A stretch of DNA of 64,000 nt from Takakia lepidozioides (taxonomy: Eukaryota > Plantae > Bryophyta): contig CM060733.1 in the NCBI GenBank assembly GCA_030704615.1, positions 28,148,001 through 28,212,000 on the forward strand. The letters run 5' to 3'. A program made the position numbers and the translations under genes. Of the stretch, positions 1-56,935 are shown piece by piece; position 1 is the first letter of the stretch, and the number at the start of each line of letters is the position of its first letter. The notes beneath the pieces are model-generated. The model did not search any database. It saw only the letters and a program-made list of their open reading frames with translations, and was not told the origin of the DNA.

Positions 1-3000
1 AGCAAAGAAAGCCAGACTATGAGTAGACAAATCACGATCGAACAGAAAAGAAAGGTTCAAGCTCTCAAGAAATGTCTAGGAGTCTGCCAAAAAAAGATTG
101 AAACCGCTTCCTGTGATGAGCATACCTTCCATACTTACCTTGAAGCACGCCAAGAACTTGAATCCTATCAATTCCTTCAAGAACAGAGAATGCAAATGCA
201 GGCGGGAATAAATTGGTCGGCCAAAGGCGAGAAAACGTCCAAGTATTTCTTTGAGAAAGTCAAACTACGCAAATCTCTTCAAAGATACAAGAATTTTACT
301 CGGACAACCAGGGCCACTCCACCTCAAATCCTAGGGCTATGTGCAGTCTTGCATTCTCCCACTTTCAGAAACTCTTCCAGGAAGACACCAAAGACCCCTT
401 GCACCATTCCAAATTGCAGGCATGCTTGCAAGTAGTGCCCCGCAAACTTCAACCAAAAGAATTCTCTTATCTAGGGGAGGACTTCACGGGTATGGAGCTT
501 CAGGATGCACTGAACAAGATGAACAATAACAAAGCACCTGGCATCGATGGCATGCCAGTGGAGTTCTACAAAGCCCTCTGGTCACACATTGCGGTTGACT
601 TTGCTGCTCTGGCTAATGCAATTAAAGCCCAGGGCCTGATGCCTCCTTCAATGTCCCATGGAGTCATTTCACTCTTGTTCAAAAAGGGCGACAGAGCTAG
701 CATAAACAACTACAGGCCAATCACACTCCTCAATGTAGCATACAAGATAATTGCCAAAGCTCCGGCTCTTCGTATCCAGCCCCTTCTCCCTCAGCTTATC
801 AGGACAGGACAGGCTGGTTTTATTAAAGGCCGAAGGTACATTCTTGACAACATCCTTTTGGCTCAAGAAGCCTCCTCATATGCTTCCAGAAACAACCAGG
901 CCCTGGCCCTATGGTTGCTAGATTTTGAGAAAGCCTTCGACAAGGTAGATTGGACCTTCCTGCTGGTGGTTCTTCGAAAGACAGGCATCCCAGAAAACTT
1001 TTGTCAATGGGTTCAAATCCTTCTATACCAATCCACTAGCAGAGTCATGGTCAATGGCCATCTCTCCGCTCCTTTTTCTCTCCACAGGTCAGTTAGACAA
1101 GGACGCCCGTTGTCTCCCTTTCTTTTCTTGTTTGTGGCTGACACCCTAGGTTACCTGCTGGACTCTGAAGCTTCGGTGCAAGGCCTCAGGATAAAAAAAA
1201 CCCTAGGTCTGGGCTCCAAATCCAAGTAAAAGACTCTATGTTTGTTGACGATACATTTTTACTACTTGATGCCACCCCCAACACCCTATAGGCAGCCCAT
1301 GATACATTAACCTAGTTCTGTGAGGTCTCCGGCTTCAGGGTCAACTGGAGTAAGACCAATGCAATCTTGGTGGGAGACCTCGCACAATCGGAAATAGGCG
1401 ATAACCCCTCATGGGGGGCTGAAATAGGTCTAATATGGCTGGCATCGGGCGAGTCAACAACACTGCTGGGATACGCTTTTGGTAAAGACCTTACAGAGAA
1501 CCAAAGAATGGGGCCCATTCTAGCCATGCTCAAGAGAAAATTAACTTACCGGGGATCACGCTTTCTCTCCATTACAGGAAGAGCTTTGGTGGCAAACCAA
1601 GTGCTCGAGGCAGGCATTTGGTACTTTGCCTCCACTTGGGGCCTGGATTCGTTGTTCCTAAACGAGGTTAAAAGATGCGTGAGAAACTTCATTTGGGAGC
1701 AAACTGTTCAACACAGAACAAAAGACCCCAGGTGTCATGGAGGCAAATTGCCTCCCAAAGAAGAGGGGGGGTTTAGGTATCTTGGACCCAGAAATGCAAA
1801 TCCACGCTTTGCTGGGCAAATGGCTGCCCAGATTTCTAGGGCCCGAAGGCGGGTGGTGGAAGCTTCTGGTGGAAGAAAACATAGCATTTACCTCACCTCT
1901 CCTGAGCACTCACTGGAAACAATCCACCGGGTGGATAACCCAGGGATTCAATCACAAATCAGTGGGATCGCCTTTATGGAAATCTATTTGGAAAGCCTGG
2001 AAAAGATTTAGGCCATTTCTGCTCAAGTCGGAGCCTGCCACCTTCCAAGAAACAATGAGGCAACATCTTTTCCTTAATACATCAAATCCAACCCCTCTAG
2101 AGAGAGCACAAGCTAGACGATGGGTAGCATGGGAAACGAGAGGTTTCTCGCAAGTAACTCACTTATGGGACAGCAACCCGGATTCCCTTAGGATGGCGCT
2201 GGGTCAAAACAGGCTGGTAGCTGGAATCCAAACCATCATCCGCTCTATCCCAGATCAATGGAAGACAATCCTACGGGGTGGCAAGGAAATCCATAAAGAA
2301 CATCAATGGGTCAATTCCATCAACCAACCTTTTTCGGTGATGTATGTGATAGCAGCCACACAGACATCGCTCTCAGGCTATGGGTTCCTGGCAGACTCCT
2401 TCTCGGGCTTCCTTTCACTTTTCTCTACTCAACCCCAATCCCTGGACAGTTCACAGGCCACCCCAGTTAGAATCTGCCATTGGTCTGGCAAGGAGAAAGA
2501 GTTCAACCCTTCGGCTCCCTTGGACAAACCGATAATGCATTGGATTCAAGCCAACTCTTTCACCCGAATAGGAAATGGGCAGATCCAAGATCTTCCAATC
2601 GACCCTGGTGAATGGGAGTGGAACTTAGATGGGGCTTGCTCTAAGTTCTTCTCCTACTCAACCAAGAATGCATACAGATCTCTCATCAAAGCAACAGGTC
2701 TAACTGCAAAGTGGAATGACAAATGGAATTTGGAGGGTTTCGATGAAGAGAATTGGGATATTATATGGGGCCTGGTCTGGGAAAAAACAAAACCAACAAA
2801 GCTCAGTGCTTTCCTGTGGCAAATCACCAACAGGGTCTTTAAGGTTGGGCAATTCCCAATCCTAAACGTCCAGGAGGCCTTTCTTTGTACTTGCTGCCAC
2901 ATTGGAATTATAGAAACGATGGAGCACTGCCTAATTTCTTGCCAGGGACCAACCCTCATTTGGCCATATATTGTCACATTTTATGCAGGTTGGGGCCCTC

Positions 3001-3939
3001 TCCCTGCAGGCAGAGTAGAGTTACTCCCGAACTACAACAAGCAATCTAAATCAGTTGCGAACCACTCGGGCCGCCTAACAAAACATCTGCCCAGTTTTTG
3101 AAACCCTGAGAGGAGCCACTCTATGGCAATTGTGGAAAGCTAGAAGCTCCTGGTCTATGCAACATCTTAACTCAACTGTATCTGCTGTGCTTACGAGGAT
3201 CTTCTTTGAACTCACTGTAGCAGCTAAGTTGGCATGGAAAAAAGTCTGTGCAGGCATTACCAGGAAGCCAGAACGAGAACAGGCTCTCTTGCAGCAGTTC
3301 AATTCCACCTGGGGGAGAGGGGATCTCATCTGCTCCTGCAGGGGTCCTGACTCCTGTGTCTGGCCTCGGCAAATCCCCTCTCAATGGAGGGGACACCGAA
3401 CCCTCCTCTTCCGCTTCCCCAAAGTTTGACAAAACGGACATCAACTGGAAGCATGTGAGGACCTCCACGAAGACCAGGCTGGACTACAGCTCCTAAATTC
3501 CACAGCACAGGCTCTACCACATTAAATCTATAGGCTCTTGTTCAGGTTATCTGGTGTATCAAAACCCCTCGATCATTTAGACTCGTAGTTTCATACCTCG
3601 TAGTCTAGTGTGTATCTGACCTTCGAGATATCTCTAGGTTGTGTCACTCTAGTTGACGTCATTGCTCTAAGTCTCCTCACGGAGCCAGACTACACTTCTT
3701 TAGCTCAGCTAATCGTATTACTTTGACTCAAAACACAGGGCCAGGTCTCACTTGTTTAGCTTAGCTAATCGTATTGCTCTTCGGGATATCCGTTACGTTT
3801 ACTGTGAGACAAGCCTAATGGCGGCCAAAGGCCAACCAAGGGTTTTAATTTTTTTCCCTTTAATAATCTCAATAAAATTCGACTACAGGGCACCGTTCCC
3901 TACTCTCCCCCCTGAAAAAAAAAAAAAAAAAAAAAAAAA
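1..3939 (+). mobile_element. L1/Tx1-type LINE (LINE-A): ORF2 to poly(A) tail, degenerate, 5' part outside window
   Basis: Frameshifted ORFs 19-435, 339-1229, 1367-2011, 1737-3101 and 3130-3429 contain non-LTR RT motifs (KAPGIDG, NYRPITLLN, LDFEKAFDKV, VRQGxPLSP, FVDD) and a C-terminal zf-RVT-like CTCC..ETMEHCLISC. AATAAA at 3871-3876; A25 at 3915-3939. Confidence 0.93.
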
Positions 3940-6260: not shown

Positions 6261-6647
6261 AGTCCTCCTATAGTGTCCATTTTTTGCTGTCACAACACTG
6301 TTTTTTCTAGACATAGAATATTGGTAAATTATCATATTCCTACATGACAATGCCATCAATAAAAATGGACTAATATATAGAGGCTCATCTACATATACTT
6401 TCACACTTTTAAATCTCATTATCAAAAACCAGAATCTGTAGATGCTATGGACTTTTAAAAAGTCCATAAGGAATTGTCACAGTCCATAAAAAAGACGTTA
6501 TGGACTTTTTTAATATAGGAGTTAGAACAAAGTCAAGAAAATGGACTCTCTCAACCTTGCTTTGGAGAATGAGGAATCTGGAAGGAAAAATATCATTAAA
6601 AAATATGAAGTTAAAAAAAAATTATATACTATATTGAGCCTAAAAAA

Positions 6648-7018
6648 TGTTGGAATTCGACAGAGAATAGAGATAAAAGATGAATTGATTACTGAGAACT
6701 CTCCACCCAACCATAGGACCACAACAAGCTGTGTGTCCACCCTCCGAGCTCTCCATATTTATACTCAAAGTCTAATCCAGAAATAGCTGAGATAACTATA
6801 ACATAACTCCATGCTTTTACTTAAGTTATCTCCACTTGCTATTCTGGTACAATGACTTGAGTCACTAATAACTAAAGCTAACTTTAACTATCTTTTAGTT
6901 AACTGAGGCTTATCTCTATTGTTAACTGTGACTTGTCAGCATTGCTATTACGGAAGCCTGACTTGTCATCACAGTAACTTTAGGTAGTAGTAACTTGGTC
7001 AGGAATTGATTTCCAACA
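6648..7018 (-). repeat. Copia 3' LTR (371 bp)
   Basis: Direct repeat of 21972-22327 (about 16 substitutions and one ~15-bp indel, counted by eye); TG...CA ends. Confidence 0.95.
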
Positions 7019-7700
7019 CCCCCACTCAACGAGTTACCAAGTTAAGCACTTGACTACTCCCATTAAGCCTCGAAAGCGTTCAAGCTTTTCAGCACTAAGC
7101 CCTTTTGCCAGTATGTCTGCAACCATGTTGTTGGTGTTGCAATATACAAGCTTGACAACTCCAGCTTCAGTCTTCTCTGACAGAGCCTGATCAATACATG
7201 ATCACATGATCTCTTTCAGAGCCACCATCTCAAACCTCTTTGAGATATCACTTTGTTTTTCTCAACAAAGCAATACATGATCATAGGATCTCTTTCAGAT
7301 CCACCATCTCAAACTTCATTGAGATATCGCTTTGTCTTTTTCAACAAAGCCTGATCAATACATGATCATGATCTTTTTCAGATCCACTATTTCAAACTCC
7401 TTTGAGATATTACTCTGTATGTGTTTCAACAAAGCCAAGTCATTAAAGACCAAAATCAGATTATCAACGTACAGTGTTATGATCACAAAAGAGTTTCCAT
7501 GAGCTATCTTATAGTAAACACTATAATCAGCAGAATTCCTCTCAAACTCTTCAGCCATGAAATATGCATCAATCTTAGCATTCCATGCCCTAGGGGATTA
7601 CTTCAAACCATACAAGGACTTGATGAGCTTACACACCTCTTTTTTTTTACAGCAAATCCCTCCGGCTGGTCCATGTATATTTTTTCCATAAGATCTCCAT

Positions 7701-7787
7701 TGTCGTGCGCATACGTATCGCTACACAACTACATCGTTGTCCAAACCACACCACACATATATGCACAATAAAGTAGTCTGCCACAAT
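7701..7787 (-). repeat. Gypsy terminal repeat A (outer copy, 87 bp)
   Basis: Matches 8146-8232 with 2 mismatches. Confidence 0.93.
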
Positions 7788-8143
7788 TGATAGAACAAGC
7801 TAAGAGACACACTGTTCACACCAGAAACAACATGAAATCCATCGCTATCACTCGTTAAAACAGAAGTCGAGCTAGGGGCACCCCAAGCTATGGGGACTCT
7901 ACCCCACAACAACCTATACTCCCATCATAAGCACACTCAGTCCTAAATGATGCAGGAGCTCGGTCGCGCAGGCTCAACTTGAGAGAGATGAGCTGCGCGA
8001 CTGCTGCTCTCGTGAAGATAAGGCGGTTCAGGTATCAAACTAAACTTGACACCTGACTTAACACTTGACCTAAATCCAAGTGTTAAATACAAATAACTAG
8101 CTTTATTCTAGTTGTTTTCACATTGTGCTTATTTAACTTGACA
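7788..8143 (-). repeat. Gypsy terminal repeat B (3' copy, 356 bp)
   Basis: Matches 19514-19869 with about 13 substitutions, nearly all transitions. Confidence 0.95.
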
Positions 8144-8145
8144 GC

Positions 8146-8232
8146 TGTCGTGCGCATACGTATCGCTACACAACTACATCGCTGTCCAAACCACACCACA
8201 CATGTATGCACAATAAAGTAGTCTGCCACAAT
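8146..8232 (-). repeat. Gypsy terminal repeat A (inner copy, directly after the PPT)
   Basis: Matches 7701-7787. Preceded on the minus strand by the PPT-like TAGGGGGGCG (8242-8233). Confidence 0.93.
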
Positions 8233-8480
8233 CGCCCCCCTAGCTGGTGGGTAGGTCCTTCTACCTCCAGATAGCTACAAGATGTAATAGCCACAGCCGT
8301 ACTAAGTCCTCCCTATTGCACTCAAACTCTATAGACCAAGAGGCCGAGTACAAGAGTAGCCCCATCGTTAGTCGCCATCTTGCAATCTGTGAACTTGAGC
8401 CAAGACCTCGTGTGTTCAAGGTCTCATAGTAGCTGGGCCTTGCGTTTCTTGTTAGTTTTCCATGGTTGTATCCACTCCCA

Positions 8481-10175
8481 CTATCTAATGCAATGTGGAC
8501 ATAACCAATCCCCATCTGGAACCATCTCAAGAGGTGGAGTCAAGCATCCCATATGCCAACCTCTAGAGCATCGATCGTACACCAGCATGGTGGCTGCCCC
8601 TCTAGCAGACCCACACAACATGCACCTCAAACCTGCAGATACCACTGCCAAGTTTGGGTCTATCCTGCCATCGACATTCGGAAGGTGACATGGTGCACAA
8701 TTACACACATGGTCCTTCCAAGTTATGCCATCCCGACCCTCCAAGACCAAGACGCCTGAGGGCAAGACCTCTCGAACCCTCAAAATAACACGTCCTACAG
8801 TCACATCCAAGGTCGTAGGAGCAGTCTGCTGCAGATAGACGTAGTCACCAGGGTTGAATCTCCGAACCCCAGGACAATAGCCCCCACCACGTATGGTAGC
8901 ATACCTCAACGTATCACGGTGTTGTGCAATGGCAAGGTTCTCAAAAGCCATTGGCATGACTTTCTTGAACAACTCTGCACGCTGCTCACATGCACGTGCC
9001 CACACATCCGGATCGTCAAGGTTAAGAACTGTACCAGCTTCTCTGCGAATGGATGTAGGCAAATCCGGCTCTCGGCCAAAGAGAAAAAAGTATAGTGAGA
9101 AGGAGGCAAGTGATGCTTGCTTGCTGAACCTGTAGCCCATGGCTAACCAGGGTAACTGAAGGTCCCAATCTCCTAGGTGTCCCTTCTGCAAGCCATACTT
9201 GCGCAAACCCCTCTTTACTGTCTGAACAATTCTCTCTGCCAAGCCATCGGCTTCAGGATGATCCCGAGAAGTGGTGCGGTGGTCTATCAAGGCCTTGTCA
9301 CACAAAGCCTGAAATTCCCCCAAGAACTCTCTCCCTTGGTCCGTGAGTACCTCAGCTGGAGCACCGAATCAGCTAAGCACACAATCCAAGAATGCATACG
9401 CAGCTCTCTCACTAGCCTTATCAGGCAATGGAACCAATTCAATCCACTTGGAGAAGTGCTCCACCATCACCAACACGTACTTGTTGTGGCGCATGGTCAG
9501 TGGCAACGGCCCTGCGAAGTCAAGACTCCACCTGTAGCCCAATCCCATGATCGGAAGAGGGTGCAATTGTGGAGTAGGGGCGTTGAATGAAGCACGCACC
9601 CTGTCACACACCATGCACCTAGCCACAAATTGTTGCACCTCTGAGTGCATACCACACCACCAATACTGCCCCTGCAGTAGACTATAAGTGCGTCGCACCC
9701 CAAAATGCTCCAACTCCTCATGGGCATGCCGCACTAACCGTGCCCGCTGTGTTGGGTGAGGCACAATCCTCACTCGACCATCCTCCCACACTCGGAGCAG
9801 GTGTGTCCCCTCCCACTTGAACCTCTTGGCTCGTTGTAGGATCCAATCCCTCTCCTTGGCAGTCATAGTGGCTGCAGTGTCTCCAGTGCGGAGGTAGTCT
9901 AACACAACTGAATCCTCATGTATATCTTTGGCGCCACCTTGCTCATTGCTGGCCTTAGGGTCCTCAGACACTTGATCTACAGTCATCCCTGTTGCAGGTC
10001 CAACCTGGCCTTCCGCTGCCAAGATACACAGAAATGCAGATGCATGCCATCCGGGGACCATCTCCTCGTCCGTCTCACCATGCCACCGAGCTCCAGTGTC
10101 ATCCTGCTGGCTCGTGCATGGATTGCGACTCAACCCATCTGCATTGCGATTGACCAAACCCGGTCGATGCACCAC
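8481..10175 (-). pseudogene. Gypsy integrase with C-terminal PHD finger (one in-frame stop)
   Basis: Zinc finger H-x4-H...CMVC; catalytic D (WSLDFAGP), D (VLTDQGREF), E (GLAERIVQT). C-terminus CMLC...YDRC..WHMGCLTPPL..VPDGDWLCPHC. Stop at 9369-9371. Confidence 0.93.
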
Positions 10176-10208
10176 CTGAAAGTCATACTCTTGAAGGATG
10201 AGTGCCCA

Positions 10209-11501
10209 TCATGCAAGCTTCCCCGTAAGCTTGTCTGACTCCATCAACCACTTGAGTGGTTGGTGATCCGTGACAAGGGTGAAGAGATTGCCGTATAGAT
10301 AGCACCTGAAGTGTGCCACGGCCCACACTGCAGCTAAGCATTCTCCCTCATATGAGCTATACTTAGACTCAGCAGCATTGTTCGAGCGGCTAGCGTAAGC
10401 CACTACGAACTCTCTTCCCTCATCATCCACCTGTGTGAGCACCGCTCCAAGCCCCAGCATGCTCCAATCTGTATGCAGCTGAAAAGGACGCCCCCTGATA
10501 GGTCGTCTCAAGATGGGCGCCGAGGTCAACCTCGCCTTGAGCTCTTGAAAAGCTTGTTCTTGCTCATCTTCCCACTGCCACTCCTGGTCCACCTTGGTCA
10601 GCTTGGTTAGAGCCTTTGCAATGGCACTAAATCCCTTAACAAACCGTCTGTAATAGTTTGCTAACCCCATGAAAGCTCGAACTCGGCTCATATCCGTGGG
10701 GCGTGGAACCTGTGCAATGGACTCTACCTTAGTCCGCTGTACCCCCAATCCTCCAGGATATATCATGTGACCCAGATACTCAATCTGGTTGTGGAAAAAC
10801 TTGCACTTTCCTGGATGTAACTTCAATCCGTGCGTCCTCAAGCACTCAAATACCCCCTGAAGGTGTCTCTCATGCTCATCCACCGTAGCACTAAAGATGA
10901 TGATGTCATCTATGTAACACCGAGCAAACTCCACCCCTGCTAGAATCTTGTCCATGACCCTTTGAAACTCAGCAGGAGCGTTTTTAAGCCCAAATGGTAA
11001 GAACCGCCACTGGTATAGGCAATCCTTCCCATGCTCATTGATCCCCCAGAATGCCGTCTTTTGCTTATCCGCCTCCTTGATCGGCAACTGGTGATATCCA
11101 GATCGTAAATCCAACGTGCTAAAGACCTTGGAATGCCCAATGGCATCAAAGATCTCCTCTGGTGTCGGCATGGCATACCTATCGGACTTGGTCTGACGAT
11201 TTACAGGCCGGTAATCACCGCACATACGTCTCTCCGTCCTATTGCCATAGACATCCTTCTTGGCTGGCATCACTGTGGCTGAAGCATACTCTCCACCAGA
11301 GAGCTCCACCAAACCTGCCTCCCAAAGATCCTGAGTTCTCATCTGAATCAAGGACCTCTCCATGTCATTGTATCTATAGGGTCTCCGAAAGATTGGCGTG
11401 TCAGTAGCCAATTCAATGCGAATCTCTTGACCCTTCAGTGCTCCCAAGTCCTTCAAACTGAAGGCAAAGCAATTCCTGTAAGCCCTCAGGAACCGCCGCA
11501 T
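10209..11501 (-). pseudogene. Gypsy reverse transcriptase and RNase H
   Basis: RMCGDYRPVN, STLDLRSGYHQ, LPFGLKNAPA, YIDD; RNase H LHTDWS / GECLAAVWA / VTDH. Confidence 0.96.
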
Positions 11502-11939
11502 ACGTCGTCTCTCTCCTCCGGTGACAATGGGTCCAATATCAGGCTCCCAATTGTCCTCCGTAACTGCAACCTTAAGTCCAGTGGGCTTAGAGGTAGAGGA
11601 CGTGTCCCGTGGTTGCTATGCTGCAACCTCTTGAGCAGTACTCCCTTCCTGCTCAGTCAATGACAAGGCCTCATCCCGCCCCATCATCTAATGATTGAGA
11701 ACCTCCTCAACCCGAGAAGAATCCCCAACCTCATCCATCACAGCTGCCTTGGCTGCCAACTCCCTCTGGACCTCGAGCACCTCCCACGTGTGCCATGGAT
11801 GTCTACACCCCGTGGTCCTCACCGGCTCGCCCCCACTCGCTGCCTGTACCGTCTCGGTAGGCAGAGAGACCGTCAAGGGAAGTGCACTCCGCACTCTACG
11901 TTGCTCAGCCATAGCCAAGCTGATAATCCAGGTCAAGCA

Positions 11940-12870
11940 ATTGAGATCCATTGCTTGCCCCAACACCTGACGACGTGATGCCGCAGAAAGAGAAGGCACC
12001 GCCGTGGTCCCAATGGAAAACCCCATAGCCCGCTCTCGCTCGTCGGCATTAGGCTCCACTAACTGTTGCAACTGAGCATCCCACAGGAGGCCAGGTCCAC
12101 CATCCCGAAAAGCATGGGATCCTGGGAAGCTGAGCAGTGTAGGTAATGCTGCTCGTGGTTGACCCACCCTGTTGACCACTGCCAAAGGCGAACGGTCATC
12201 GTGTCTCACACGTTGACACTGCCTCCCTGTGTCCAAAATGTTGTCCACTATGAGGTGTGTTGGCCGCTGCACCCCATCAAATGCACGCTTGAGCAGTGCG
12301 GGTGGCATCAAGTTAGTCCACCATAGCCGTGGACGATGAGCTCATGATCCTACTGCAGCTGCATCCAGCAGGTGCTGACCCAAGCCACGACCGGACTTGA
12401 TGCACACAGGCCATCACCCTGGCCCGAGAATCGCCCATCAGTGGCACATTCTCCAAGATGTATGCTGGCGATACAGCTTGATGAAGCTGCAAGTGGCGCA
12501 AAATCCGCACCATCTCCCAAAACAGACCCGTCCTCGAGTCTCGCAATCCATTGCTATGCCCGGCTGATGAATGCCCTTGGCAGGGCCAACCTGCCACTAC
12601 CAGATCAATGGAGCCAACCTGCTCCAAATTCGGCGCCCCCAACAACGAAATGTCTGCTGGCAAGGCTTGTTGGTATCCACGAACTGCAGACACTGGCAAC
12701 AAAGCAGGGTACTGCTGTACCAACTGAGCAACATGGCGTAGTGAGACGTGTCGTGCAGTCTCATCCCTCTCCACATACAGGTAACGCCTTACCCGCACAC
12801 CTGCCTGTAGCACAGTAGCCAATCTGGTGCTGATCCCGCCAAACAAGTCCAGAAGGCAAATGTCTTCATC
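11940..12870 (-). pseudogene. C5-cytosine DNA methyltransferase domain (DNMT3-like) inside Gypsy pol
   Basis: Motif I LLDLFGGI, II YVE, III DI, IV GWPCQGHS (catalytic PC), V LRDSRTGLF, VI LENV. After a frameshift near 12375 and a TGA at 12342-12344: VIII AHRPRLWWTNL, IX ERERAMGF, X RRQVLGQAMD. Confidence 0.92.
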
Positions 12871-13260
12871 CGGATATTGCCACACAATAGGCGTGGTATC
12901 CAATGGAGACAACTGAGGTGGTCCTGGTGCAATACCCGCACTCTCCTCCTCTCCTGACAGTACAAAAGCCTCTACCCAGGCTTGTTGCACCTGTCGATCA
13001 GTAACCTGCTGCAAATCTTTGCTCGTACCCCACAATGGAGTGTGAGCAACCATGGCAGGCAATTCCGCCATACCATGCATGTCATCATGCTCTGCTGGAG
13101 GTGACACATCCTCTGCATGGGCATTGCCTTCCAGCAACTCTCCAGGCCAACTAATTGCAGCTGTAAAGGCGGCTAGTGTTGGCATCTTGCCCCGTTGGGC
13201 AGCTGCAATACCCCCAATGAATGTCACAGGGAGCTGTGCACGACGACCATCCCTTGACTG

Positions 13261-14367
13261 CTATCCAGGCTTGTAGAATGCTGACTCCTCCCAAAAGTCC
13301 AGGGTGAAGCCCATGGGGTATAACACTGCCCCACCAACGAGGACATCGTAAGAGACCGCGTCTGTCACAATGGCCTTGGCTCGCATTACTAAGCCATCGA
13401 TAGGATGATCCGGCTGCAGTTTAATGGCCAACTGATGTTGTGTCATGCCCCGAGCCTGCTCTGATCCTCCCAGAGATGTCTGTATCTGGAAAGAACAAGG
13501 CTCCATATCCGCCTCCATGAGGCCCAAACTTGCAATAGCAGCTCTGCCCAACATCAGTGGCTGAGCTCCCGAGTCCAACAAGACCCGTAGTGGCCGGTAC
13601 TTCTTGCCTGCCGGTCCACTCAAAGAGAAAATGCCATCCTGGTTGTCTAACAAGACAACTCCAGGTGTCACCATGGCGCGCTCAAAGGCTGGCCTAGCTG
13701 GCAGCTCCGTCAACCTGGCAGCTGCAGCTTGCCATGGCGCAGCCGTGGCAGTCTTGACCCTCAAATCCGAGGATCCCTCTGCCACTACACCTTCCAGTAA
13801 CTCCGCAGAAGATGAAGTGACCTCCCCACTCTCACAGAGTGTTGCTGCTAGTCTGAACACTGCAGCTGGTCTTACCCCCGGCGTCGCAATCATGGTTGCC
13901 GAGAATAGTGGGGCTTGACACACAGAGGTGGCTGCCCCCAACAACACACCGGCTATACTAGCCTTGGCAGCAGGTGTCAGTGCTGCACGTGTAGCTCTCC
14001 CCAATGGCATAGAAACCTCCGCCTCGGTAACAGTCAGGCGAGAACTAGGTGCCATGGATGGCGTTGACACTGTCTCCGCCAAGGTGAATGACTGAGGCGG
14101 CCTCGCCTGACGGCTTGCGTCCCCACGTTGTGGATCCAACTCCACCTCTGCACCTCGTGGCTCAGGAACTCGTGCTGCTCCTCGAGTCACGGCTGCAGCA
14201 GACTCCACCTGCTCTAGTGGTAGTGCTGCTCCGCACATGAATCCCATGCCTCCCATATCTCCTCCCTCAGGAGCAGGAGGTGGACCATCCCGCCTGGGAG
14301 CCGGTACCGCCTGAGCTGTAGCCATGGCAGCGAGCCTCTGCTTTAGCTGCTGAAGCCGGTTGGCCAT
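13261..14367 (-). pseudogene. Gypsy gag-pol linker and aspartic protease
   Basis: VLLDSGAQ catalytic motif and YDVLVGGAVL C-terminal motif. Confidence 0.88.
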
Positions 14368-15802
14368 GCCTTGATCAATACCCTGACCTCCACGTCCTTG
14401 GCCATATTGAGCTTGCCCTTGGCCTGCACCTCGTGCCCGACCACCTCGTCTCTCTGGGCTGGTCCACCTTGCCCCCGGCCACCATTGTTCCCTTGGAACT
14501 GGCCTGGGCGCAACTCAGGATGCAAGTCATAACACTGGGCATCTCCATGCCCATACTTGCCACAATGCCCACACTGCAACTGTGCAGGCTGTGTTTGTGC
14601 CGGCCTTTTGCCACTCTCTGGGCAATCTCTCTTGACATGGGGTCCTCCACATGTCCAATATATCACCCCTGGTTGCTGTTGGCCTGCAAAAGATGCCACG
14701 GGCCTCTGCACCTGAGGTCCCCTGTAAGCTCCATGGAACTTGGGTTGGGAAACCTTGTCCCCCTGACCACGCTGTTGGGCTGTTCCTTGTGCCTGTGGGC
14801 TGGTAGCTGCGCCTCGTGCAGGCATGTCCTTGCCAAACCCAATGGTAACAACTCGCTCCTCCACCATGTTGAGCTCAATCCGCTCAGCCAGCAGAAACAC
14901 ATCTGTTAATGTGGGTGTAACAGGGTTGCATCCCGCACCCTTCTCCTGAGCTCCTTGTCCAAAATTCCATACCAGAACTGGATTGCCTGAGCTTTAGTAA
15001 CCCCTTGGGTCACACTTATCAAGCGCCTCATACGAGTGTAGGCCTCTCGCAAGCTCTCACCGGGTTTGCGCTGGAAGTCTTGCAAACTTCGCAGCTTCTC
15101 TGTCCGTACACCTTGGTAGTTCCTCCGCAACTCCTGGAAGAACTCCACCACCGGGTTGAATCTAGAGACATGTGTTGTAGTCGTGGCAGGAGGAGTAGTA
15201 GCACCTTTTGAACTGGTACCACCTGCAGAAGTACCGGCACTACTTGTTTCACTACTAGTGCTGGTAGTGGGAGATATTGGTACTGATGCAGCTACTGGTC
15301 GCGTCGTGCCTCGAGTAATGGAGACGTAGTCAGGTGACCAATACATCCTCCACTCCAATCTCTGCTTCATGTCCTCACCTGAACTCGTGGTAATCGTCCA
15401 TAGGCGGACCTTCCAAATGCTGGAACAGTCCTTTCCACGCCATGAATGGGGTGAATAGTTGTGGATTGCGCATCTGCTGCAAATCACACCAGCTGTCGAA
15501 CTCCTGGATAAAGTCATCCAACTCGATTGAGACACAGCTCCAGAGTACCTACGAGGCCTCTTGGTAGCTCCATACATCTCCTCCATGTCGTCCCACAACA
15601 ATGGCGAATGAAACTGCACACCTGTTGATGAAGCCTCCGAGTCTTTGTCTGACTCTGCACTAGTTGAGGGTGGAGGTGAAGGTGGTCTGAAACGAACACC
15701 TCGTCTGGTGAACCCACTCTCACTGCTACTACCTGTAGCCGTACTCCCCTTAGAACCCCTGGGTAACTCCGTGATGACACTCACAATGTGCACCTCCCCC
15801 AC
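14343..15802 (-). pseudogene. Gypsy gag (capsid-like region and two zinc knuckles), frameshifted
   Basis: LQDFQRKPGESLREAYTRM (major-homology-like); WTCGGPHVKRDC and CGHCGKYGHGDAQC knuckles. Confidence 0.85.
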
Positions 15803-16305
15803 GTGACACTATAAGGCTTTAGTACTAATTCTAATACGGGTAGGCACCTGTTGCAGTTTAAGGGTCATATCCCAGTGGCTCAGGGCACCTGCACCTGCAT
15901 CCACCGCAAGAACTCCTATGGTTGGCTGGTCATCAACCCAGCCTCACCATAGAAGAAACACTGGTGGTCTTGCTGGTCATCACTCCAGCCTCACCACCGA
16001 CAACATACTCTAGGATTGACCGGTGATCAAGTCCGGCCTAATCCCTATGAAAGCAAGCGCCCACACAAAACCCACAGTCAAGCATGCAGGTGTTGGGGGG
16101 GATCCAAACACAAGAAATCAAAACTCAACACCTCCACACCAAAATCCAGCTGCAATGCTGATCCTGCAGAATAGCCCAGTCCAAAACCCGGGACTGACTG
16201 GCCTCCACCAAGAGAGGCTTTGGCAACTACGAGTACAAGGTAATGAAAATAGTACAGAGATGGAGGGGAAGAATAGAAGCCCGCCCAAGCAAGATCTAAT
16301 CCTAT

Positions 16306-17055
16306 CTATGCTATCAACTGCCAGACTTCTCTCAAAGTGCCTTGCTCTGCATGATGGTAAGGTGTAGGAGGTATATCTATGTCCAGAAACCTGCCACTAA
16401 CCTTGTCCCAAGCTACAGTAGCTCGCTCTAACCAACCCTCCTCCTCTTTCTGCCAGGTAGAGACAAAGCAATACTCCCCTATCTCCCGCTCACTGAACAC
16501 TAAAGAAAACAAAGGTATGGTCTGATAGTCTCTCAACTCGAAAGCTTTGAGATGGTTGCGGGTGTCCTCATTGCGAATGACTGCATCTCCTTTAAGCAAA
16601 ACAAACTTGTCATTGCTAATGAACCCCCGCTCGTGGTTGCCTTGTGCAGAGCGTATCCGGCTGCAACCATGTCTGATTGCACAAACTTGTGCAGCTCCTG
16701 CTCCTCTGCTCCAGTACACCACGGCCTTGTGGCTGAACACCTTGGTCCATGGGGCTGTCTTTGGTTGTGTTCCAAGCCTAGCTTTCACCCACTTTGGTAT
16801 TTCACCTACAGCTGCAGAACTGCTGGCTCCAACAGAGTTCTGACTATCCAAAGCAACATTGAGGCCCTCAACGCCAACTACAGCAGTTTGTTGTCTACTG
16901 CTAATGCCTGACTCCCAGTATGCAATCAACTCATCCAACTGTTCTCCACTCAAATCAGTCTGAGTTCCTTGGGAAACATAAATCATGTCCCCTTGTGTGC
17001 ACAGGCTAAGAGACGAGACCTGCCCTTCAATTACGTCCTCATTTCCCCCAGCCAT
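16306..17055 (-). CDS. Extra ORF of unknown function upstream of gag in the Gypsy element (249 aa)
   Basis: ATG-initiated, stop-free 750-bp ORF, sense to the element, with a globular-looking C-terminal half. Confidence 0.55.
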   Translation of the reverse strand: MAGGNEDVIEGQVSSLSLCTQGDMIYVSQGTQTDLSGEQLDELIAYWESGISSRQQTAVVGVEGLNVALDSQNSVGASSSAAVGEIPKWVKARLGTQPKTAPWTKVFSHKAVVYWSRGAGAAQVCAIRHGCSRIRSAQGNHERGFISNDKFVLLKGDAVIRNEDTRNHLKAFELRDYQTIPLFSLVFSEREIGEYCFVSTWQKEEEGWLERATVAWDKVSGRFLDIDIPPTPYHHAEQGTLREVWQLIA

Positions 17056-17325
17056 ACAAGGAGAACATCCATAGATTTGTCTCTCATATAGACCAGAACA
17101 GGTTCTAGAAACAGAATTGTGGATCTTTCATGGCACACTCACACTCTAAAAATTCCATAGATTTTTAGCAGAGTCCCAAAAATAAAAAAACCACGTCTAG
17201 AGAGGTAGATATCCCCTTTCTGCAGCTATTCCCTCAAGAACTGAGTCAAACGGAGCTCATTTGACAAAGATATGACCAACCAGGCTCTTTAAACATAACA
17301 CATTTTCATTTTTTTTTTCATTTTT

Positions 17326-17332
<7 letters not shown>

Positions 17333-17362
<30 letters not shown>
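17333..17362. repeat. (TA)n microsatellite in the Gypsy leader
   Basis: About 15 TA units seen directly. Confidence 0.9.
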
Positions 17363-17364
<2 letters not shown>

Positions 17365-19499
17365 ACAAAACAAATACAAGGAAAACTCTATTTTCAATAC
17401 TTGTCTTGGTTCCCTGTTCCTTGGTTTCTTGTTCCCTAGTTCCCACTGACTGGCTCTCCTCCAGTCGAGATCCGTAGCTATGCTGAGCCTTAATCCTTTG
17501 CACCAATATTCCCAACAAAAGCAGGAACACTTACAATGCAACCCCGGAAAGCACCAGATCGGAAATATCTGATCGGCTCAGCACTATAGTGCCAGGGGCA
17601 CATAAACCAGATTGTAGGAGCAGCCAGAGGAAATGCAGGTTATGCCAGCATCATCCAGACCATCCCTGCATCTTGGATATGCATCCTCCAGCAAGGGCCA
17701 TTGCCTCCATTGCCCGACACTTGGTTACATGCTCAGCCAAACCTAATCAGGTCATTTCCGTGACAGATTTCAGCGGCATTCAAATCACTGGCCTCGCTAT
17801 GCACTGCTGCCCTCAATCAAACATCTTGCAAAGCTGGCTGTCTTTCTCTGGCAGATCGCAAATAGAATTCTAAAGGTAGAGCGTTGGCTTCAATTCACCC
17901 GTGCACTGCTCTGCACATGCTGCTCGCTTGGGGTTTCAGAATCCCTGGAACACTGTCTACTGCAATGCAACATACCTTCAAAAAAAAATCTGACCCAAGA
18001 TTCACTGGCTGCTCAAACACTGGCATGACCAAACATCTTTAACTCCAATCAGCTTGCTACTAAATTACAATCCCAATGCCCAGTTGAGCTGCCAGTCTCG
18101 CATTCACTGTCCCCACCAAGGCAGCTGCATGAATACTATGAATACCATCACAGCTCCCATCTTCCACTCTAACCGGTTGGATGAGTACGGCCTTGAGGTC
18201 TGGTCAAGGCCACCAACTGCACCTGGGTTGTCCCAGTTCTCTGTTGCCCAGTTCGGGTCACCTTGCTGATCGTTGGTGTTTTCAAACGGGTTCATCCCAT
18301 ACACCAGACAAAGGGATAATCAGGAAAGTCTGGAGTTCAGAAGCTGATAGAGCTCATATTCCTGCACCAATTAAATGAATGTGGTATCTCGCACTAAGAC
18401 TCCCAGGACCAGCACCTGTGCAGAAGTAAGTACCCTTGACGCCGAAATGACAGTAGAGGCAAGTGATCAGTTGGAAGTGTTCAATGATGAGACAAGTAGA
18501 GCTGGAGCTCCCTTGACCTGTATCGCCACAATCCTGCACCAAGTCAGGAGGACTTGTGAGGACTTGGTCTTAAAGGAAGAACTTATCTTTCAACAATCAG
18601 AACCATTGGCGGGACGGAGGCGCAGTGTCAGATATATGGTGACAAACTTGGACTCGGGCAGTGTGCTGAGTTGAAAGCTGGGTTGTGAACCACCATTCGA
18701 CTTTCCACCAGTTTCCCCCTCAAAATGGTGGAACCAAGGTGCAAGGTAGCAACAACTACTTGGCTTTGTACAAACCTGAAGCACTTAAAAACGACTTTGC
18801 ACCTTGCACTCCCCGAAATCAACAATGCCCCCAACAACCCTTTTTGTCAGGAAGCTGGTTGCTTATGCAGATAATCGACCAGGTGAAAGCAGCTTTCCCA
18901 GACACAATCACAAGTAGCATGAAGATTTGTGAGACTCCTGGTTTTGCAGTGTTGATGATATGCCAACAATGGGCTCCCCGTTCTCCATCGCTTTGCTGCT
19001 AGGCTTTCTCTCTCGGGGCCTTCACCTTCAACCAGCTCGCTGCGCCATGCTCTACCTGCTGGCGCTGCATTTACTGGAGGGGCGGATTTACAGCTCTTCC
19101 TTCAACTGGCTCCACTACACCAGCTCCACCTGCTCTTCCGCTGCCTTTCCTGACCGCTTCTGGTCTGTGCACATCGAACTAAGGCGAGCAACCCGGCCAT
19201 CTCCAGGCACGGAAGTTCTACCCATTTGCTCGATCACAGGTACCCCTTTAAGTCTCGCACTTGGTCAGTTTCCCAACGGCCAATCGCTGCTACTCCATGA
19301 TGTCTCCTCACTGACCAAAACGAAGGCTGCTTCCATGCAGTGTAGCTCCGTCCTGCCCGGCGGCCTCATGCCAGAACCAACGCTGATCGAAACCTGCATA
19401 TATATATATTTTAAGCTTCTTAAATTATGCACTACTCTCACACAGGTAATCATACAAGTGCTAACCCTCAACTCCTACCTTGCACTCACAGGTAAGAGG

Positions 19500-19513
19500 T
19501 CATCTCTCTCGAG
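19500..19513 (-). promoter_or_regulatory. Self-priming primer-binding site
   Basis: Minus-strand CTCGAGAGAGATGA abuts the LTR end and is the exact complement of LTR positions 19717-19704. It lacks the TGG start of a tRNA PBS. Confidence 0.8.
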
Positions 19514-19869
19514 TGATAGAACAAGCTAAGAGACACATTGTTCATACCAGAAACAACATGAAATCCATCGCTATCACTCGTTAAAACAGAAGTCGAGCCA
19601 GGGGCACCCCAAGCTATGGGGACTCCACCCCACAACAACCTATACTCCCATCATAAGCACACTTAGTCCTAAACGATGCAGGAGCTCGGTCGCGCAGGCT
19701 CAACTCGAGAGAGATGAGTTGTGCGACTGCCGCTCTCGTGAAGATAAGGCGGTTCATGTGTCAAACTAAACTTGACACCTGACTTAACACTTGACCTAAA
19801 TCCAAGTGTTAAATACAAATAACTAGCTTTATTCTAGTTGTTTTCACACTGTGCTTATTTAACTTGACA
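19514..19869 (-). repeat. Gypsy terminal repeat B (5' copy)
   Basis: Matches 7788-8143; minus strand reads TGTCAAG...CTATCA. Confidence 0.95.
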
Positions 19870-21734
19870 CCATTGAGAAAGGCTGTACATTCATCTATCT
19901 GATGTACCTCAAGATTTTCAACAACAACAAACGCTAGAATCACTCGAATTGACTCCATCCGTGCAACATGGGAGAAGGTTTCATTGTAATCAATACATTC
20001 AATTTGCGAAAACCCCTTTGCAACCAAACGCGCTTTGTACCTTGCTACAGAACCATTTGCATTGTACTTAATCTTGAAAATCCATTTGCAGCCAACAGAC
20101 TGCCGTCCAGATGGAAGTTGAACAAGACTCCAAGTCTTATTATCCTGAAGAGACTTAAACTCAGATGCCATAGCTTCCTTCCAGTGTGAAGAGTTCCCAC
20201 TCCTCATTGCATCTGACACACTTTGAGGTTCATCACTGTCAACGAAATAGGCAGAAGATACCTTTGAGGGTTTTTCAATCATAGTACATTGTACCTCCTC
20301 CATTTGAACCTCAACTATCTCTTCAACAATCTTCTCTTCCATGTTATCTTCATGAGTCAGAGCCAAGTTCTTTTTTTTCACGGTCCAAACTTGGAACTAC
20401 TTTTCTTGATGAAAGTTCCTAGACTCATTGAATATCACATCATGACTGATGATCATATACTTGCTCTCAGGGTTATACAACTTATACCCTTTGTTTTCCT
20501 TTCAATAACCAATGAAGATACACTTGATTGCTTTTGCATCCAATTTCTTCCTTATTTTTTTTGGAACATGGACAAATGCAACACACCCAAAGACGCGCAA
20601 ATGATCAACTGAAGGTTTTTCAAACCTCTTCAGGTATCTTTGTAGAGATTGCCTTAGTAGGAAGTCGATTCTGGAGGTATGCTGCAGTCGCCACTGGTTC
20701 TGCCCAGAAACGGTGATCCAACCTCATGTGTTGCAACACACACCTAACACTCTCAACAAGTGTTCGATTCTTCATCTCTGCAACTCCATTCTGTTCTGGC
20801 GTATATGGTGTGTTGATTGTTTTACAATACTATTCTCTCTGCAAAATTGGTTAAAGTTCTTTGAGATGTACTCACCACCACCATCACACCGAAGAGATTT
20901 GATATTTTCTCCAGTTTGATTCTCCACCAAAGCTTTGAATGCTTTGAACCTATCAAGAACTCCAAACTTGTTTTGCATCGTGTAGAGAAATATTTTCCTG
21001 GGAAAATCATCAATGAAGGTCAAGAAATACTTTGTACCTCCGCAAGATTCAGTTGACATAGGACCGCATAGATCTGTATGAACCAGCTCAAGAACCTTAT
21101 TTGTTCGAGAACCTCCATCTTTTGGAAATGAGTTGCGATGGTGTTTACCGTACACACATCCGTCACAAAAACTCAAGATCCGATCTCCTGTAAGATCTAT
21201 GCCATTAACCAGATTGTTAACTGACATGCATGCCAAACTTTGCATTGAAACATGTCCAAGTCTCTGATGCCAGAGGTCACTCTACTTGAGCGTAGTAGTA
21301 CACTCCGCATGTAAAGCCTGGACAACCCCCACTAGCTTGTACAATCTTGCATCTTTCACTGCCTCAGCTATCATTTCACTGTCAAACTTCACCCAACAAT
21401 GATTGATAGAAAATTCAACCGTAAGACCTTGCTCAGTTAGCTGACTAACTGACAATAGGTTCTTTGTCAATCCAGGAACAAAGAGAACTCCCCCGATCTC
21501 CTTCGACACTCCAGATGATAATTGAAACACAACAGTATCTTTTCCATGGATATCAAGACTAGTACTGCTGTCTCTAAAATACACTTTGTGTCCCACAGAG
21601 AGTTCTCTGAAGGTTGAGAATGCTTCATTCTGGAACGTTATGTGCTGAGATGCCCCTGAATCAATGAACCATGCATCTCTGCAACTCGTAGAGATTGACA
21701 AAGCTACAACAAAAAATTCAGTCCTTTCAGCCAA
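19870..21734 (-). pseudogene. Copia pol remnant (protease, integrase, N-terminal RT)
   Basis: ORFs 21282-21734, 20772-21245 and 19809-20381. RT continues at 7700-7355 on the other side of the Gypsy insertion. Confidence 0.92.
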
Positions 21735-21971
21735 TGCTGAAACCTCATTTTGTTTTTTTTGTTTTTCTCATCGTCTAGCTTTTTCTTGAAGCAGTCACGT
21801 GCATATAAGTGACCATCTAACTTCTCCATTCGGATATGATCAGCAGAAGGTGCCATGATACTAGTTTGATGTTTTGCCAACTATAAAACACCCTCAAACT
21901 TTCAGATCTAACTCCAAGCACTCAAGCTTTCAGATCTGACATCAAGTACTCAACTCCAAGCTCTAATACCA

Positions 21972-22327
21972 TGTTGGAATTCGACAGAGAGTAGAGGTAA
22001 AAAATGAACTGATTACTGAGAACTCTCCACCCAACCATAGGACCACAACAAGCTGTGTGTCCACCCTCTGAGCTCTCCATATTTATACTCAAAGTCTAAT
22101 CCAGAAATAGTTGAGATAACTATAGCATAACTCCATGCTTTTACTTAAGTTATCTCCACATGCTATTCTGGTACAATGAACTGAAGCTAACTTTAGCTAT
22201 CTTTTAGTTAACTGAGGCTTATTTCTATTGTTAACTGTGACTTGTCAGCATTGCTATTATCGAAGCGTGACTTGTCATCACAGTAACTCTAGGTAGTAGT
22301 AACTTGGTCAGGAGTTGATTTCCAACA
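21972..22327 (-). repeat. Copia 5' LTR (356 bp)
   Basis: Direct repeat of 6648-7018, adjacent to the PBS. Confidence 0.95.
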
Positions 22328-22919: not shown

Positions 22920-25900
22920 AAGCAAATCAAATCCGATGGTTGAGGATTCGCCACATCCTCCTTTATGTACTCCTTTATCCGCCACCGTTGGTAAAATCTG
23001 TCACAAAACCATAACCTGGTCGAAATTGTTACTGAGCGAATACCTCACAAACAATCAACCCTCATTTCACATGGACCAATAGACGTGACCTCCCAAACCT
23101 CCAAATGGCTCGTTTAGATAGATTCTACTCATCCATTCACATTATACAGTGGATGACCTGTTTGTCTCAACAACCCATTCCCATGGGTTTTGACCACGCA
23201 GAGATTTTGGCAAGCATCAACATTCCTGTTCATCAGGTAAAGGAATATACAGGATGAACGCCTCCCTTTTTGCTATTCCCTCTTTCAAAAATGGTCTCCA
23301 GGAAGCATGGACCTTGGCCGGGACTGTATTCTCAAACCTTTTAGAGCGTTTTCAGGAAAAACTGAAAGCCGTGTCCAAGGCAAGTCAAGCCCTCAGCAAA
23401 GCCATTTCTGAGGCCAGAAAACAAAAAATAAAAGCTCTAACGAAATGCCTCAAGGTGTGCCGGATAAGAATGGAGAGTCCTCGCTGTGACGAGGCTACTT
23501 TCCATACTTACAGGGAGGCAAGGTTCAACATGGAATATTTCCAGAACCTCAATGATGATCAGAAGCTAAAGCTGCAGGCAGGTATCAATTGGTCCACTAA
23601 AGGCGAAAAGATGACAAAATATTTCTTTGGAAAAACCAGACAGAAGAGAGCAGCTCAAAACATTGCAGGCCTTTCTGACCCTGCGACAAGTCTCCTTGCA
23701 TCCTCTCTGGAGGCTATGACCACGGTGGCATTCAACCACTTCCAGTCACTCTTCCACAGCCAAAACCAGTCACTGAACACCTCTGAGATCCAAAGACAAT
23801 GCCTAGCTCAAACCCAACCTTGGTCTCTCCTACAATAGCTCAATCGCTTGAAGGACCATTTACAGACACAGAGCTAGAGGAAGCTCTCACAAAACTCCAA
23901 AATGGCAAATCACTGGGGATAGACGGTATCCCAGTGGAGTTCCACAAAACGTTGTGGCAGCACATATCCAAAGACTTCACTGAGATGGCCAACTTCATCT
24001 TTCAGCAACAACAAATGCCCTCGGCTATGATGCAGGGGGTAATAATTTTGCTGTTCAAGAAGGGAGACCGCACTAACATAGCCAATTACCGACCCATCAC
24101 ATTGCTTAACGTAGCCTACAAAATCATAGCCAAAGCCTTGGCAAGGAGGCTTCAGCCACTATAAGACCAGGGCAAACAGGCTTTAACAAAGGGAGATACA
24201 TACTAGATAACCTCCTACTGGCCCAAGAGATACCCCACTATGCCGCCAGAACTAACCAAGCGATATCACGTTTATTACTGGACTTTGAGAAAGCATTTGA
24301 CAGGGTTGAATGGTCTTTCCTTATGGGGGCACTCTGGAAAATAGGTCTACCTAAAAGCTTATACCAATGGGTCAAAATCATGATATCTGGATCCTCCAGT
24401 AGGGTGCTCTTCAATGGCCATCTTTCAAAACCAATTTCTCTTCTCAGATCGGTTCGCCAGGGTTGTCCATTGTCCCCTTTCCTGTTCCTTGTGGCAGTAG
24501 ACTACCTGGGTCATATGCTACAAGCTAATCGGGATATTACAGGGCTGAAGACAATAAACCACACTACCCGGCAGCCAACGCAGGTTAGGGAATCAATGTT
24601 CGTTGATGACACTTTCCTGGCACTCCAATCCAACCGAGCGAACCTCGACATTGCTGTCCACACCTTGGAAACCTTTTGTCAGGCATCAGGGTTCAAAGTC
24701 AATTGGGGCAAGACTTGTGCTCTGTTGGTAGGGGACACATCCAAGTCACTAATCGGAACCCAGCCAAGGTGGGGAACTGACAAGGGCTTAAGATGGTTGC
24801 AGCCAGGTCAGACGACAACCCTGCTAGGGTATACGTTTGGTATCAATCTCACAGACCAGCAACGCTTTGAACCCATAATAGCAAACCTCAAATCCAAGTT
24901 ATCCCACGGGGGATGGATCATACCACCTCTCTATCACTGGCAGGGCAATAGTAACAAACCAGATCCTATCAGCTGGGCTATGGTTCTTCTCGGCCTTGTG
25001 GAGACCTGCCTCGTCATATATCAAAGAGGCTACCACACTCTTGAGAAACTTCATACGGGGGGCAAACAACCATACTGAAAAGAAACGACCGCAAGTATCT
25101 TGGAAGCAAATCTGCATGCCAAAGAAAAAAGGGGGGTTGGGAATCATTGACATGGATAAACAGATTACAGCCCTTTTAGCAAAATGGATCCCTAGATTCC
25201 TGGGGCCAGAGGGAGGGTGGTGGAAGTTCCTTGTGGCAGATCATATGGCAGAAGCCACCCCCCTGAAGGCAGCAAGATGGAAACCATCATTTCGTTGGAT
25301 TGTCAATGGCTTTAAGCACAAACACACGGGATCCCCCTTGTGGAACTCTATCTGGCAAGCCTGGACCCGTCTGAGACCATTCTTAGCAAAAAAAGAGCCA
25401 ACCACCTATGATGAAACTCTTAGACAATCCCTCTTCCTGAATAGCAATGTCACCTCGTCAACCCAGAAACAGCAAGCAAAGAAATGGTCAGCCTGAGACT
25501 TTGGATGCATCTCAAAAGTTGCAGATATCTAGAAACAAGGAGGCTTCCTGTCCAAACAAGATGCCTCAAACATAGTGGGCAAAGTAAGATCTAACCATGG
25601 ATTCGATGCCATCCTTCAGGCCATTCCTCCTGCATGGATAGATATACTGGAACAGGGACCTTCGCAACCATGGAAGGTTACTCTTTTCATATAGACACTG
25701 TCACAATGACCTTATCAATTCAAGATACCTCCATTGCAACCTTCCCCCACAGAGCCCATACTCCTGTGTCCATCTGCTGCTGGTCATCACCAGCAAAAGA
25801 GATTAACCCTCTGCCACCCCTTAACCGGCCGCTGTATGCTTGGCTTTCCACCCAGCGCTTTGTTTGGATACTCGGGAGACCTCTTCGAGAGTTGGACCTG

Positions 25901-56519: not shown

Positions 56520-56935
56520 TCGAAAGTGGGTGATACTACAAAGGTGAGAAAAGAATGATGAAGGAAAGAGGTATCAAATGTATGCAAGAGTGCAGCTGTA
56601 TTGAGGTGTTCTGACGGGTGCATACGTTTGTTGTCGAAGCCAAATTGCATCCACGAATGGAGGAAATCCAGTGGAGCTGAACAAAATTCGGGGCAGATGA
56701 AGGAGGCCGCGCACATACCTGACACCCGTTTTGTGTTGCACAATGTGAGGTGCAGAAGGAATTTTCCCTTTGCCACCACACTGACAAACTAGTGATGGTT
56801 TGTGGCCTTGTCAGCGCACCCCCTGAGACCCCCCATCCATGTCATCAAGAACCTTCGGGTATGTGATGATTGCCGTAACGCCACCAAGTTCATCTGAAAA
56901 CTGGTCAAGCAAGCAATTGTTGTACGGGATATCAA
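56520..56935 (+). pseudogene. E+/DYW domain pseudogene fragment
   Basis: Colinear with 53425-53840 (GDTTKVRK, HTFVVE, GQMKEA.HIPDTRFVLH, IKNLRVCDDCRNATKFI*), with frameshifts and stops. Confidence 0.88.

Follow-up and report, generated by a model that had tools for sequence, protein, structure and literature searches.

Evidence for an internal attachment site, probably cut on end-joined cDNA, in a Gypsy retrotransposon with split repeats

LTR retrotransposons are taught to integrate linear cDNA by its ends, with circular forms regarded as by-products. The Gypsy element described here, which covers 12.2 kb on the minus strand of the window (the whole 64,000-nt stretch of DNA analysed) and runs from 19869 to 7701, raises the question of how its ends were chosen: they correspond to the two halves of a palindrome found inside the element, and not to the ends of the repeat that its cDNA is predicted to carry. 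In the reading that we favour, and consider probable, inserted copies begin and end at the palindrome halves and a DDE integrase would cut there on an end-joined circular cDNA.

Element structure and the palindrome between its repeats

In the direction of transcription, the element consists of repeat A1, a primer site, a long 5' region, gag, protease, C5 DNA methylase, reverse transcriptase (RT), RNase H and an integrase with a PHD finger, followed by a polypurine tract, repeat B1, the dinucleotide GC, and repeats A2 and B2 (Table 1). The window copy is disrupted by stops and frame changes. Its pol order is PR-RT-RH-INT, as in Ty3/Gypsy, with a protease match that is weak and below the cut-off, while the methyltransferase region has a Pfam match (E 4e-13) in 12313-13260 and none in the piece 11688-12341. 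The zinc and DDE residues of the integrase are present, and its profile finds the Ty3 and foamy virus integrases as best matches among solved structures. No tyrosine recombinase family of Pfam was found in the scan, which covered 31 of the element's frames, all of about 70 aa or more. Among the 120 of 275 protein matches listed, named relatives come from Marchantia, Klebsormidium, Haematococcus, Volvox, Pleodorina and Tetrabaena.

Three smaller features of the element may be recorded here. In the integrase core, 34 residues separate the second D from the E (window frame 8481-9368), one fewer than in Ty3 and foamy virus, and this spacing holds throughout the alignment except in P0007, which has a duplicated stretch, and P0004, which has a divergent start; it may be linked to internal cleavage. 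The 5' region contains a LINE-type zf-RVT fragment (17747-18025, plus strand; E 4e-5, below the cut-off) and a self-complementary TA-rich microsatellite (17320-17375).

The element lies within a Copia element. Translated separately, the two Copia flanks give TAFLN and GDL, which across the insertion make up the usual Copia RT motif, and with CCAT at both borders no host bases appear to have been lost. The same Copia element holds three tandem copies of a 79-bp unit (7192-7432), and it is flanked by two broken LINE-type RT elements (255-3101 and 24110-26410, plus strand).

Table 1. Features of the Gypsy element, its repeats and its insertion site in the window
Feature	Coordinates	Strand	Remarks
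Host Copia element	6647..22327	-	LTRs 6647-7018 and 21971-22327; RT motif region interrupted by the Gypsy insertion
Target-site duplication CCAT, 4 bp, left copy	7697..7700	+	
B2, terminal B copy	7701..7787	-	Abuts the end of A2; putative end-to-end cDNA joint at 7788/7787
A2, second A copy	7788..8143	-	
Palindrome GACAGCTGTC	8140..8149	none	Core of the putative internal att site; spacer GC at 8144-8145
B1, 87 bp	8146..8232	-	Ends in ACGACA (left palindrome half); predicted 5' part of U3
Polypurine-tract G-run	8233..8241	-	Directly before B1
Integrase (H2C2 zinc domain, DDE core) with C-terminal PHD finger	8481..10208	-	In-frame stop near 9369
Reverse transcriptase and RNase H	10209..11615	-	
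C5 cytosine methyltransferase region inside pol	11688..13260	-	Two frames
Frame with weak aspartyl protease match	13261..14514	-	E 0.005, below cut-off
gag	14343..15808	-	Two frames; weak Retrotrans_gag match, E 0.002, below cut-off
273-aa stop-to-stop frame	16306..17127	-	In the 3.7-kb 5' region; no Pfam family at E<=0.01
Primer-binding site	19500..19513	-	Directly behind A1 and complementary to A1; without tRNA-type TGG start; self-priming predicted
A1, 5' repeat, 356 bp	19514..19869	-	TGTCA start (right palindrome half); predicted 3' part of U3 + R + U5
Target of self-complementary primer site	19704..19717	-	Predicted RNA 5' end; 14-nt exact complement at A position 153
Target-site duplication CCAT, 4 bp, right copy	19870..19873	+	

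The two copies of A are identical at 343 of 356 positions and those of B at 85 of 87, giving the order A-ORFs-B-GC-A-B, with the palindrome joining B1 and A2. On the plus strand this junction (8138-8151) reads TTGACA-GC-TGTCGT, and on the minus, coding strand ACGACA-GC-TGTCAA. Its first six bases are identical to the right terminus of the element (19864-19869) and its last six (8146-8151) to the left terminus (7701-7706), so that both the perfect palindrome at the A/B junction and the match of its halves, minus the central GC, to the outer termini can be read directly, as the sequence-only reading had claimed. The span of 8137-8152 given there contains the palindromic site but has one surplus base on each side. 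The 10-bp palindrome occurs once in the window. Palindromes of such length are common, with 99 in the window, 63 when AT runs are left out, or about 1 per 1000 positions, and the claim therefore rests on position and recurrence; what is above chance is the placement of the palindrome exactly between the repeat ends, together with its recurrence in relatives.

The reverse-transcription signals place this site within the predicted LTR. A primer site behind the 5' repeat and a polypurine tract before the 3' repeat are both present, as Ty3/Gypsy requires, while two complete colinear terminal LTRs are absent, with A at one end and either B-GC-A-B or B at the opposite one. The 14-nt stretch that follows A1 is exactly complementary to A positions 153-166, and primer complementarity of 11-14 nt at A positions 153-168 is found in 6 of 13 A1 ends, the window included, the rest being weaker, decayed or absent. 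This arrangement suggests self-priming and an RNA start inside A. Self-priming has a precedent in Tf1. With the G-run directly before B1, standard LTR copying would yield a cDNA repeat B-GC-A with the palindrome inside U3, bounded on one side by the polypurine tract and on the other by the predicted start of the RNA at the self-priming target, 152 nt into A; the earlier placement of an att-like site within U3 agrees with this.

Constancy of the insertion ends and conservation of the site

Further copies were studied through contigs of sequencing runs and through metagenome loci; the runs listed as containing the element include no RNA run, from which nothing follows for expression. Contigs of four runs, three from one sample (X1, X3 and X4) and one from another study (X5), were placed on one LTR unit. 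Among the positions listed, loose ends with unlike flanks fall at 8146 in 37, 33 and 27 contigs (X1, X3 and X4), with an agreement of 0.37-0.39, and the other loose ends listed agree at 0.69-1.0 and look like subfamily differences. Loose ends listed at 19869, where junction and flanks are mixed, number 18, 6, 5 and 1 (X1, X3, X4 and X5), and the 2-3 contigs listed at each of 19870-19873 likely match the flank of the window copy by chance. Joints that lead from 8232 back to the start of A, and so correspond to the B2/A2 link, occur in several variants in the run contigs. Between 8113 and 8181 no variant at the 3% level is among those listed, a weak indication, since contig ends mask differences. 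The proposal that the palindrome marks the real ends of the element is borne out by these data, in that family copies share fixed ends.

The left end of the window copy is ambiguous by one base and can be read with the 4-bp duplication CCAT and an end at 7701, or with a 5-bp duplication and an end at 7702. The 5-bp duplication fits the window copy and no other, and the other copies favour 4 bp and 7701. Exact 4-bp duplications flank seven of the ten two-ended elements (window, L002, L010, L060, L061, L064 and L079), two more match at 3 of 4 bases (L004 and L023), and one, L062, has no target duplication; exact duplications of 3, 5 or 6 bp were found at these ends in none of the ten. A duplication of 4 bp is in keeping with a DDE integrase and settles the ends as TG..CA. 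Individual copies depart from the common pattern in other respects: in L079 a partial A stands in tandem before A1 (2335-2434), in L062 GC precedes A1 near 2070, without B and without a duplication, and L016 has a short end followed by GCTG at 879.

A metagenome scan for relatives gave 414 loci, of which the best 80 were used, and 49 of these yielded a B1 row, the others having too little downstream DNA, lacking the region or belonging to other LTR types; two scans of viral contigs yielded no locus. The site lies 89-176 nt behind the G-run of the polypurine tract in five LTR types, namely that of the window, M1 (65-77% integrase identity), L006 (70%), M2 (47-56%) and L020 (55%), in the last of which it is a 16-bp perfect palindrome. 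Across these five types a 13-bp core has an anchored identity of 0.88 vs 0.29 outside, and the conserved sequence is CGACA-GC-TGTC. B can be aligned only between the window and M1, with L013 and L006 aligning over the 34 bp up to the site, and no pair of LTR types aligns in A beyond short stretches. In a shuffle control, the motif appeared in 4-12 of 2000 shuffles per segment. Conservation of the palindrome relative to the rest of the LTR, the check that the sequence-only reading had proposed, thus came out in its favour, for the site is kept across five LTR types whose remainder is mostly unalignable. The A-B-A-B layout itself is shared by at least 12 independent insertions of a distant family.

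In 16 old copies the spacer is GC in 8, AC in 4, GT in 3 and AT in 1, and the right half is TGTCA in 12 and TATCA in 4. All of these changes are transitions at CAG/CTG cytosines, a pattern that would be explained by methylation decay after insertion. At greater distance (44-50% integrase identity) no site was found in 9 of 11 loci, and a candidate was found in the other two. That of L051 (50% integrase identity; 2811-2826) reads CACGGCA-GC-TGCCATG, 121 nt behind a G-run, and has changes on both sides with the palindrome kept (GGCA-GC-TGCC); the candidate site of L077 is imperfect.

Full and short forms and the order of joining and cutting

In M1 and M2, 16 of 40 distinct 3' ends extend past the palindrome into A, and the other 24 terminate with the CA of B1. 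From this count L014, L023, L026, L032, L042, L049 and L060 were dropped as repeats of the same insertion, L033 was excluded as unresolved, and L011, in which B2 lies behind a deleted A, was removed from the short class; the partner kept from a same-insertion pair varies between this count, the B1/B2 comparison and the joint analysis. The short form, A-ORFs-B, which makes up more than half of the 3' ends and was omitted from the sequence-only reading, also carries a target duplication. Divergence does not differ between full and short M2 copies (0.108 vs 0.108; n=13 and 16; P 0.84), which is compatible alike with primary short insertions and with later B-B deletion, and the short forms could all be post-insertion deletions. 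One M1 insertion, present in two assemblies (L013, 3244-3878, and L014), has a foldback 3' end composed of B1-GC-A, the primer hairpin and the first 176 bp of A in inverted orientation, ending at the att half-site; this suggests that a half-site alone can serve as an end.

The joint between A2 and B2 is imprecise: in 14 M2 copies it has no extra nucleotides in 6, 1-3 extra nucleotides in 5 and deletions in 3. In 12 copies, B2 differs less from the B1 of its own element than from those of other copies, both in transversions (0.009 vs 0.021) and in indel events (0.42 vs 1.33), and rare variants, up to 7, are common to B2 and its own B1 in 8 of the 12. By all substitutions the own B1 ranks first in only 4 of the 12, because decay blurs the signal. 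The sets of B1 and B2 are not set apart by letters of their own, the one such column of 195 being polymorphic. Taken together, the imprecise joint and the likeness of B2 to its own B1 indicate that end-joining is likely remade in each cycle. The pattern fits a B2 that would derive from the left end of its own cDNA and be joined afresh in every round, and the likeness of B1 and B2 could also arise via gene conversion.

A route consistent with these features would begin with cDNA made by standard LTR reverse transcription, B-GC-A-ORFs-B-GC-A, the right end of whose A would be linked by host end-joining to the left end of its B, producing the imprecise A2|B2 joint. Integrase would then nick both strands of a palindrome 2 nt apart, after CA, so that two CA-3' ends would arise, sharing a GC flap that repair would remove, and these ends would be inserted 4 bp apart in the target by ordinary strand transfer. 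A 2-nt staggered cut after CA, which we infer from the inserted copies, is the simplest geometry that yields TG..CA ends, loss of GC and a 4-bp duplication. If the upstream palindrome were opened, the full form would result; no other form has a repeat at both RNA ends, so that this is likely the one able to replicate, while short copies would come from 1-LTR circles, double cuts or later B-B recombination. The sequence-only reading had the cut and omitted the joining of the two cDNA ends, which a full-length copy additionally needs. The evidence consists of inserted copies throughout, and the circle and the cut are deduced from them. An internal att site is the firmer part of this proposal and is very likely, whereas joining before cutting is held with moderate confidence.

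The main result against a randomly opened 2-LTR circle is that such a circle holds two identical palindromes, yet the permuted form A-B-GC-A-ORFs-B was found in 0 of 7 short-looking elements with both ends. The probability of this outcome is 0.001-0.008 if at least half of short-looking ends were permuted, and 0.08-0.2 if 20-30% were. Three explanations offer themselves: a preference for the upstream site, a collapse of permuted copies, or cutting before joining. The last of these would mean that the upstream palindrome is cut on linear cDNA and the freed B ligated to the far end of A; att site and cut would be the same, but ligation would occur during or after strand transfer, without a closed circle. 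Such an order, which we regard as possible though unlikely, explains the lack of permuted copies, is compatible with the imprecise joint and with a B2 like its own B1, and fits the many short forms, which would follow if the downstream palindrome were cut as well or the freed piece were lost. However, it needs a rule that selects the upstream palindrome and retains a fragment of 87-176 bp, for which no precedent was found in the literature searched, and the permuted copies may instead have collapsed by recombination between the longer A repeats.

A very improbable alternative is copying in the manner of PAT and Ngaro, with an RNA that extends through B2, an A-B-A-B layout inherited via the transcript, and a single-junction circle opened by integrase. 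The layout is that of split-direct-repeat elements (PMC4157794; PMC5890265, Fig. 4c legend), but the self-complementary primer site and the polypurine tract sit at the borders of A and B, where ordinary LTR copying has them, the A2|B2 joint varies from copy to copy, and B2 tracks its own B1 in the absence of class-specific letters. Almost no weight can be given to a unique rearrangement, to a nested solo LTR or to insertion by a tyrosine recombinase supplied in trans: although 7701-8143 alone resembles a TG..CA solo LTR and a 10-bp palindrome is common by itself, recurrence of the layout in the distant family already contradicts these readings, the ends of the window family are fixed, 4-bp duplications span whole elements, and the scanned frames of the element offer no recombinase of that type.

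Relation to known systems and wider setting

The element resembles Ty3/Gypsy elements (Metaviridae) in its gag-PR-RT-RH-INT order, TG..CA ends, 4-bp duplication and polypurine tract, and differs from them in that its inserted ends are not those predicted from reverse transcription, its LTR is split and its att site is internal. A close counterpart is KnitGypsy-Dnmt3 from Klebsormidium nitens (de Mendoza et al. 2018, PMC5890265), which has Gypsy domains and a cytosine methyltransferase in pol, and whose repeats are likened in the legend of Fig. 4c to the structure of DIRS elements (A-coding-B-A-B). Judged by that description, it shares with the window element both the methyltransferase in pol and the DIRS-like repeats, and a K. 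nitens protein is 57% identical to the integrase piece of the window. In the parts consulted, PMC5890265 describes neither an att site or palindrome nor a target duplication, a short form or any mechanism, and no other description of the att site or mechanism was found in the literature searched, which consisted mostly of open papers. The layout has thus already been noted, and the integration route is likely new. A PHD finger in a Gypsy polyprotein is common to the window element and, according to PMC9940879, to Gypsy-7a_cRei and REM1 of Chlamydomonas, likewise of the green lineage, for which a split LTR is not described in the consulted portion of that paper.

Precedents exist for the individual steps. 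HIV-1 integrase is reported to be capable of cleaving both strands of an internal palindrome after CA (PMC1905944), 2-LTR circles to be able to feed integration (PMC4372172), and the 2-LTR circle junction of foamy virus to be cleaved (PMC1180852). In these retroviral accounts the junction palindrome is the end-to-end joint itself and belongs to a side route that restores a normal provirus, whereas the palindrome of the window element is an inherited U3 site that is distinct from the end joint, contains a 2-bp spacer and delimits each of the insertions examined. PAT, TOC, Kangaroo, Ngaro and VIPER are described as A1-ORFs-B1-A2-B2, with a B1|A2 junction that equals the outer ends (PMC4157794). 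The window element shares the split direct repeats and the A1-B1-A2-B2 (DIRS) order of the PAT/Ngaro group, but that group uses a tyrosine recombinase and the window element a DDE integrase with a 4-bp duplication. The transposase of ISCth4 (IS256 family) is described as nicking head-to-head ends with a short spacer on a circle, with a target duplication on insertion (PMC7780238); there, as far as that account goes, the junction is made anew from DNA by the transposase, with spacers derived from the flank, while that of the window element would be inherited through RNA.

We lean, though only somewhat, towards a wider reading in which the element represents a widespread green-lineage Gypsy clade whose end-joined 2-LTR circles, in other LTR elements a dead end or a reserve, are an obligate productive intermediate and whose integrase uses an inherited internal palindrome in place of the cDNA ends. 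If true, this would be a natural case of a retrovirus-type integrase routinely using an internal site, with end-joining as part of the productive cycle, and the old question of whether circles serve as integration precursors could be tested in a simple system whose 13-bp substrate is defined. It would also represent convergence on the layout of tyrosine-recombinase retrotransposons and on bacterial copy-out/paste-in logic, and an integrase that inserts circles via one short site would be a candidate tool for integration in plants. Standard LTR finders would miss or misannotate such elements, since full copies are without paired terminal LTRs and short copies without a repeat.

Outside the mobile elements, the window contains a PPR-DYW editing-factor gene (51590-53890, plus strand), which identifies the host as a plant, with a partial duplicate 3.1 kb downstream (56691-56939), and a plant O-methyltransferase frame (48634-49512, plus strand). 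A dispersed repeat family, in pieces of 45-200 bp, forms three clusters, one of them inverted (37917-41203, 59426-59858 and 61542-61604).
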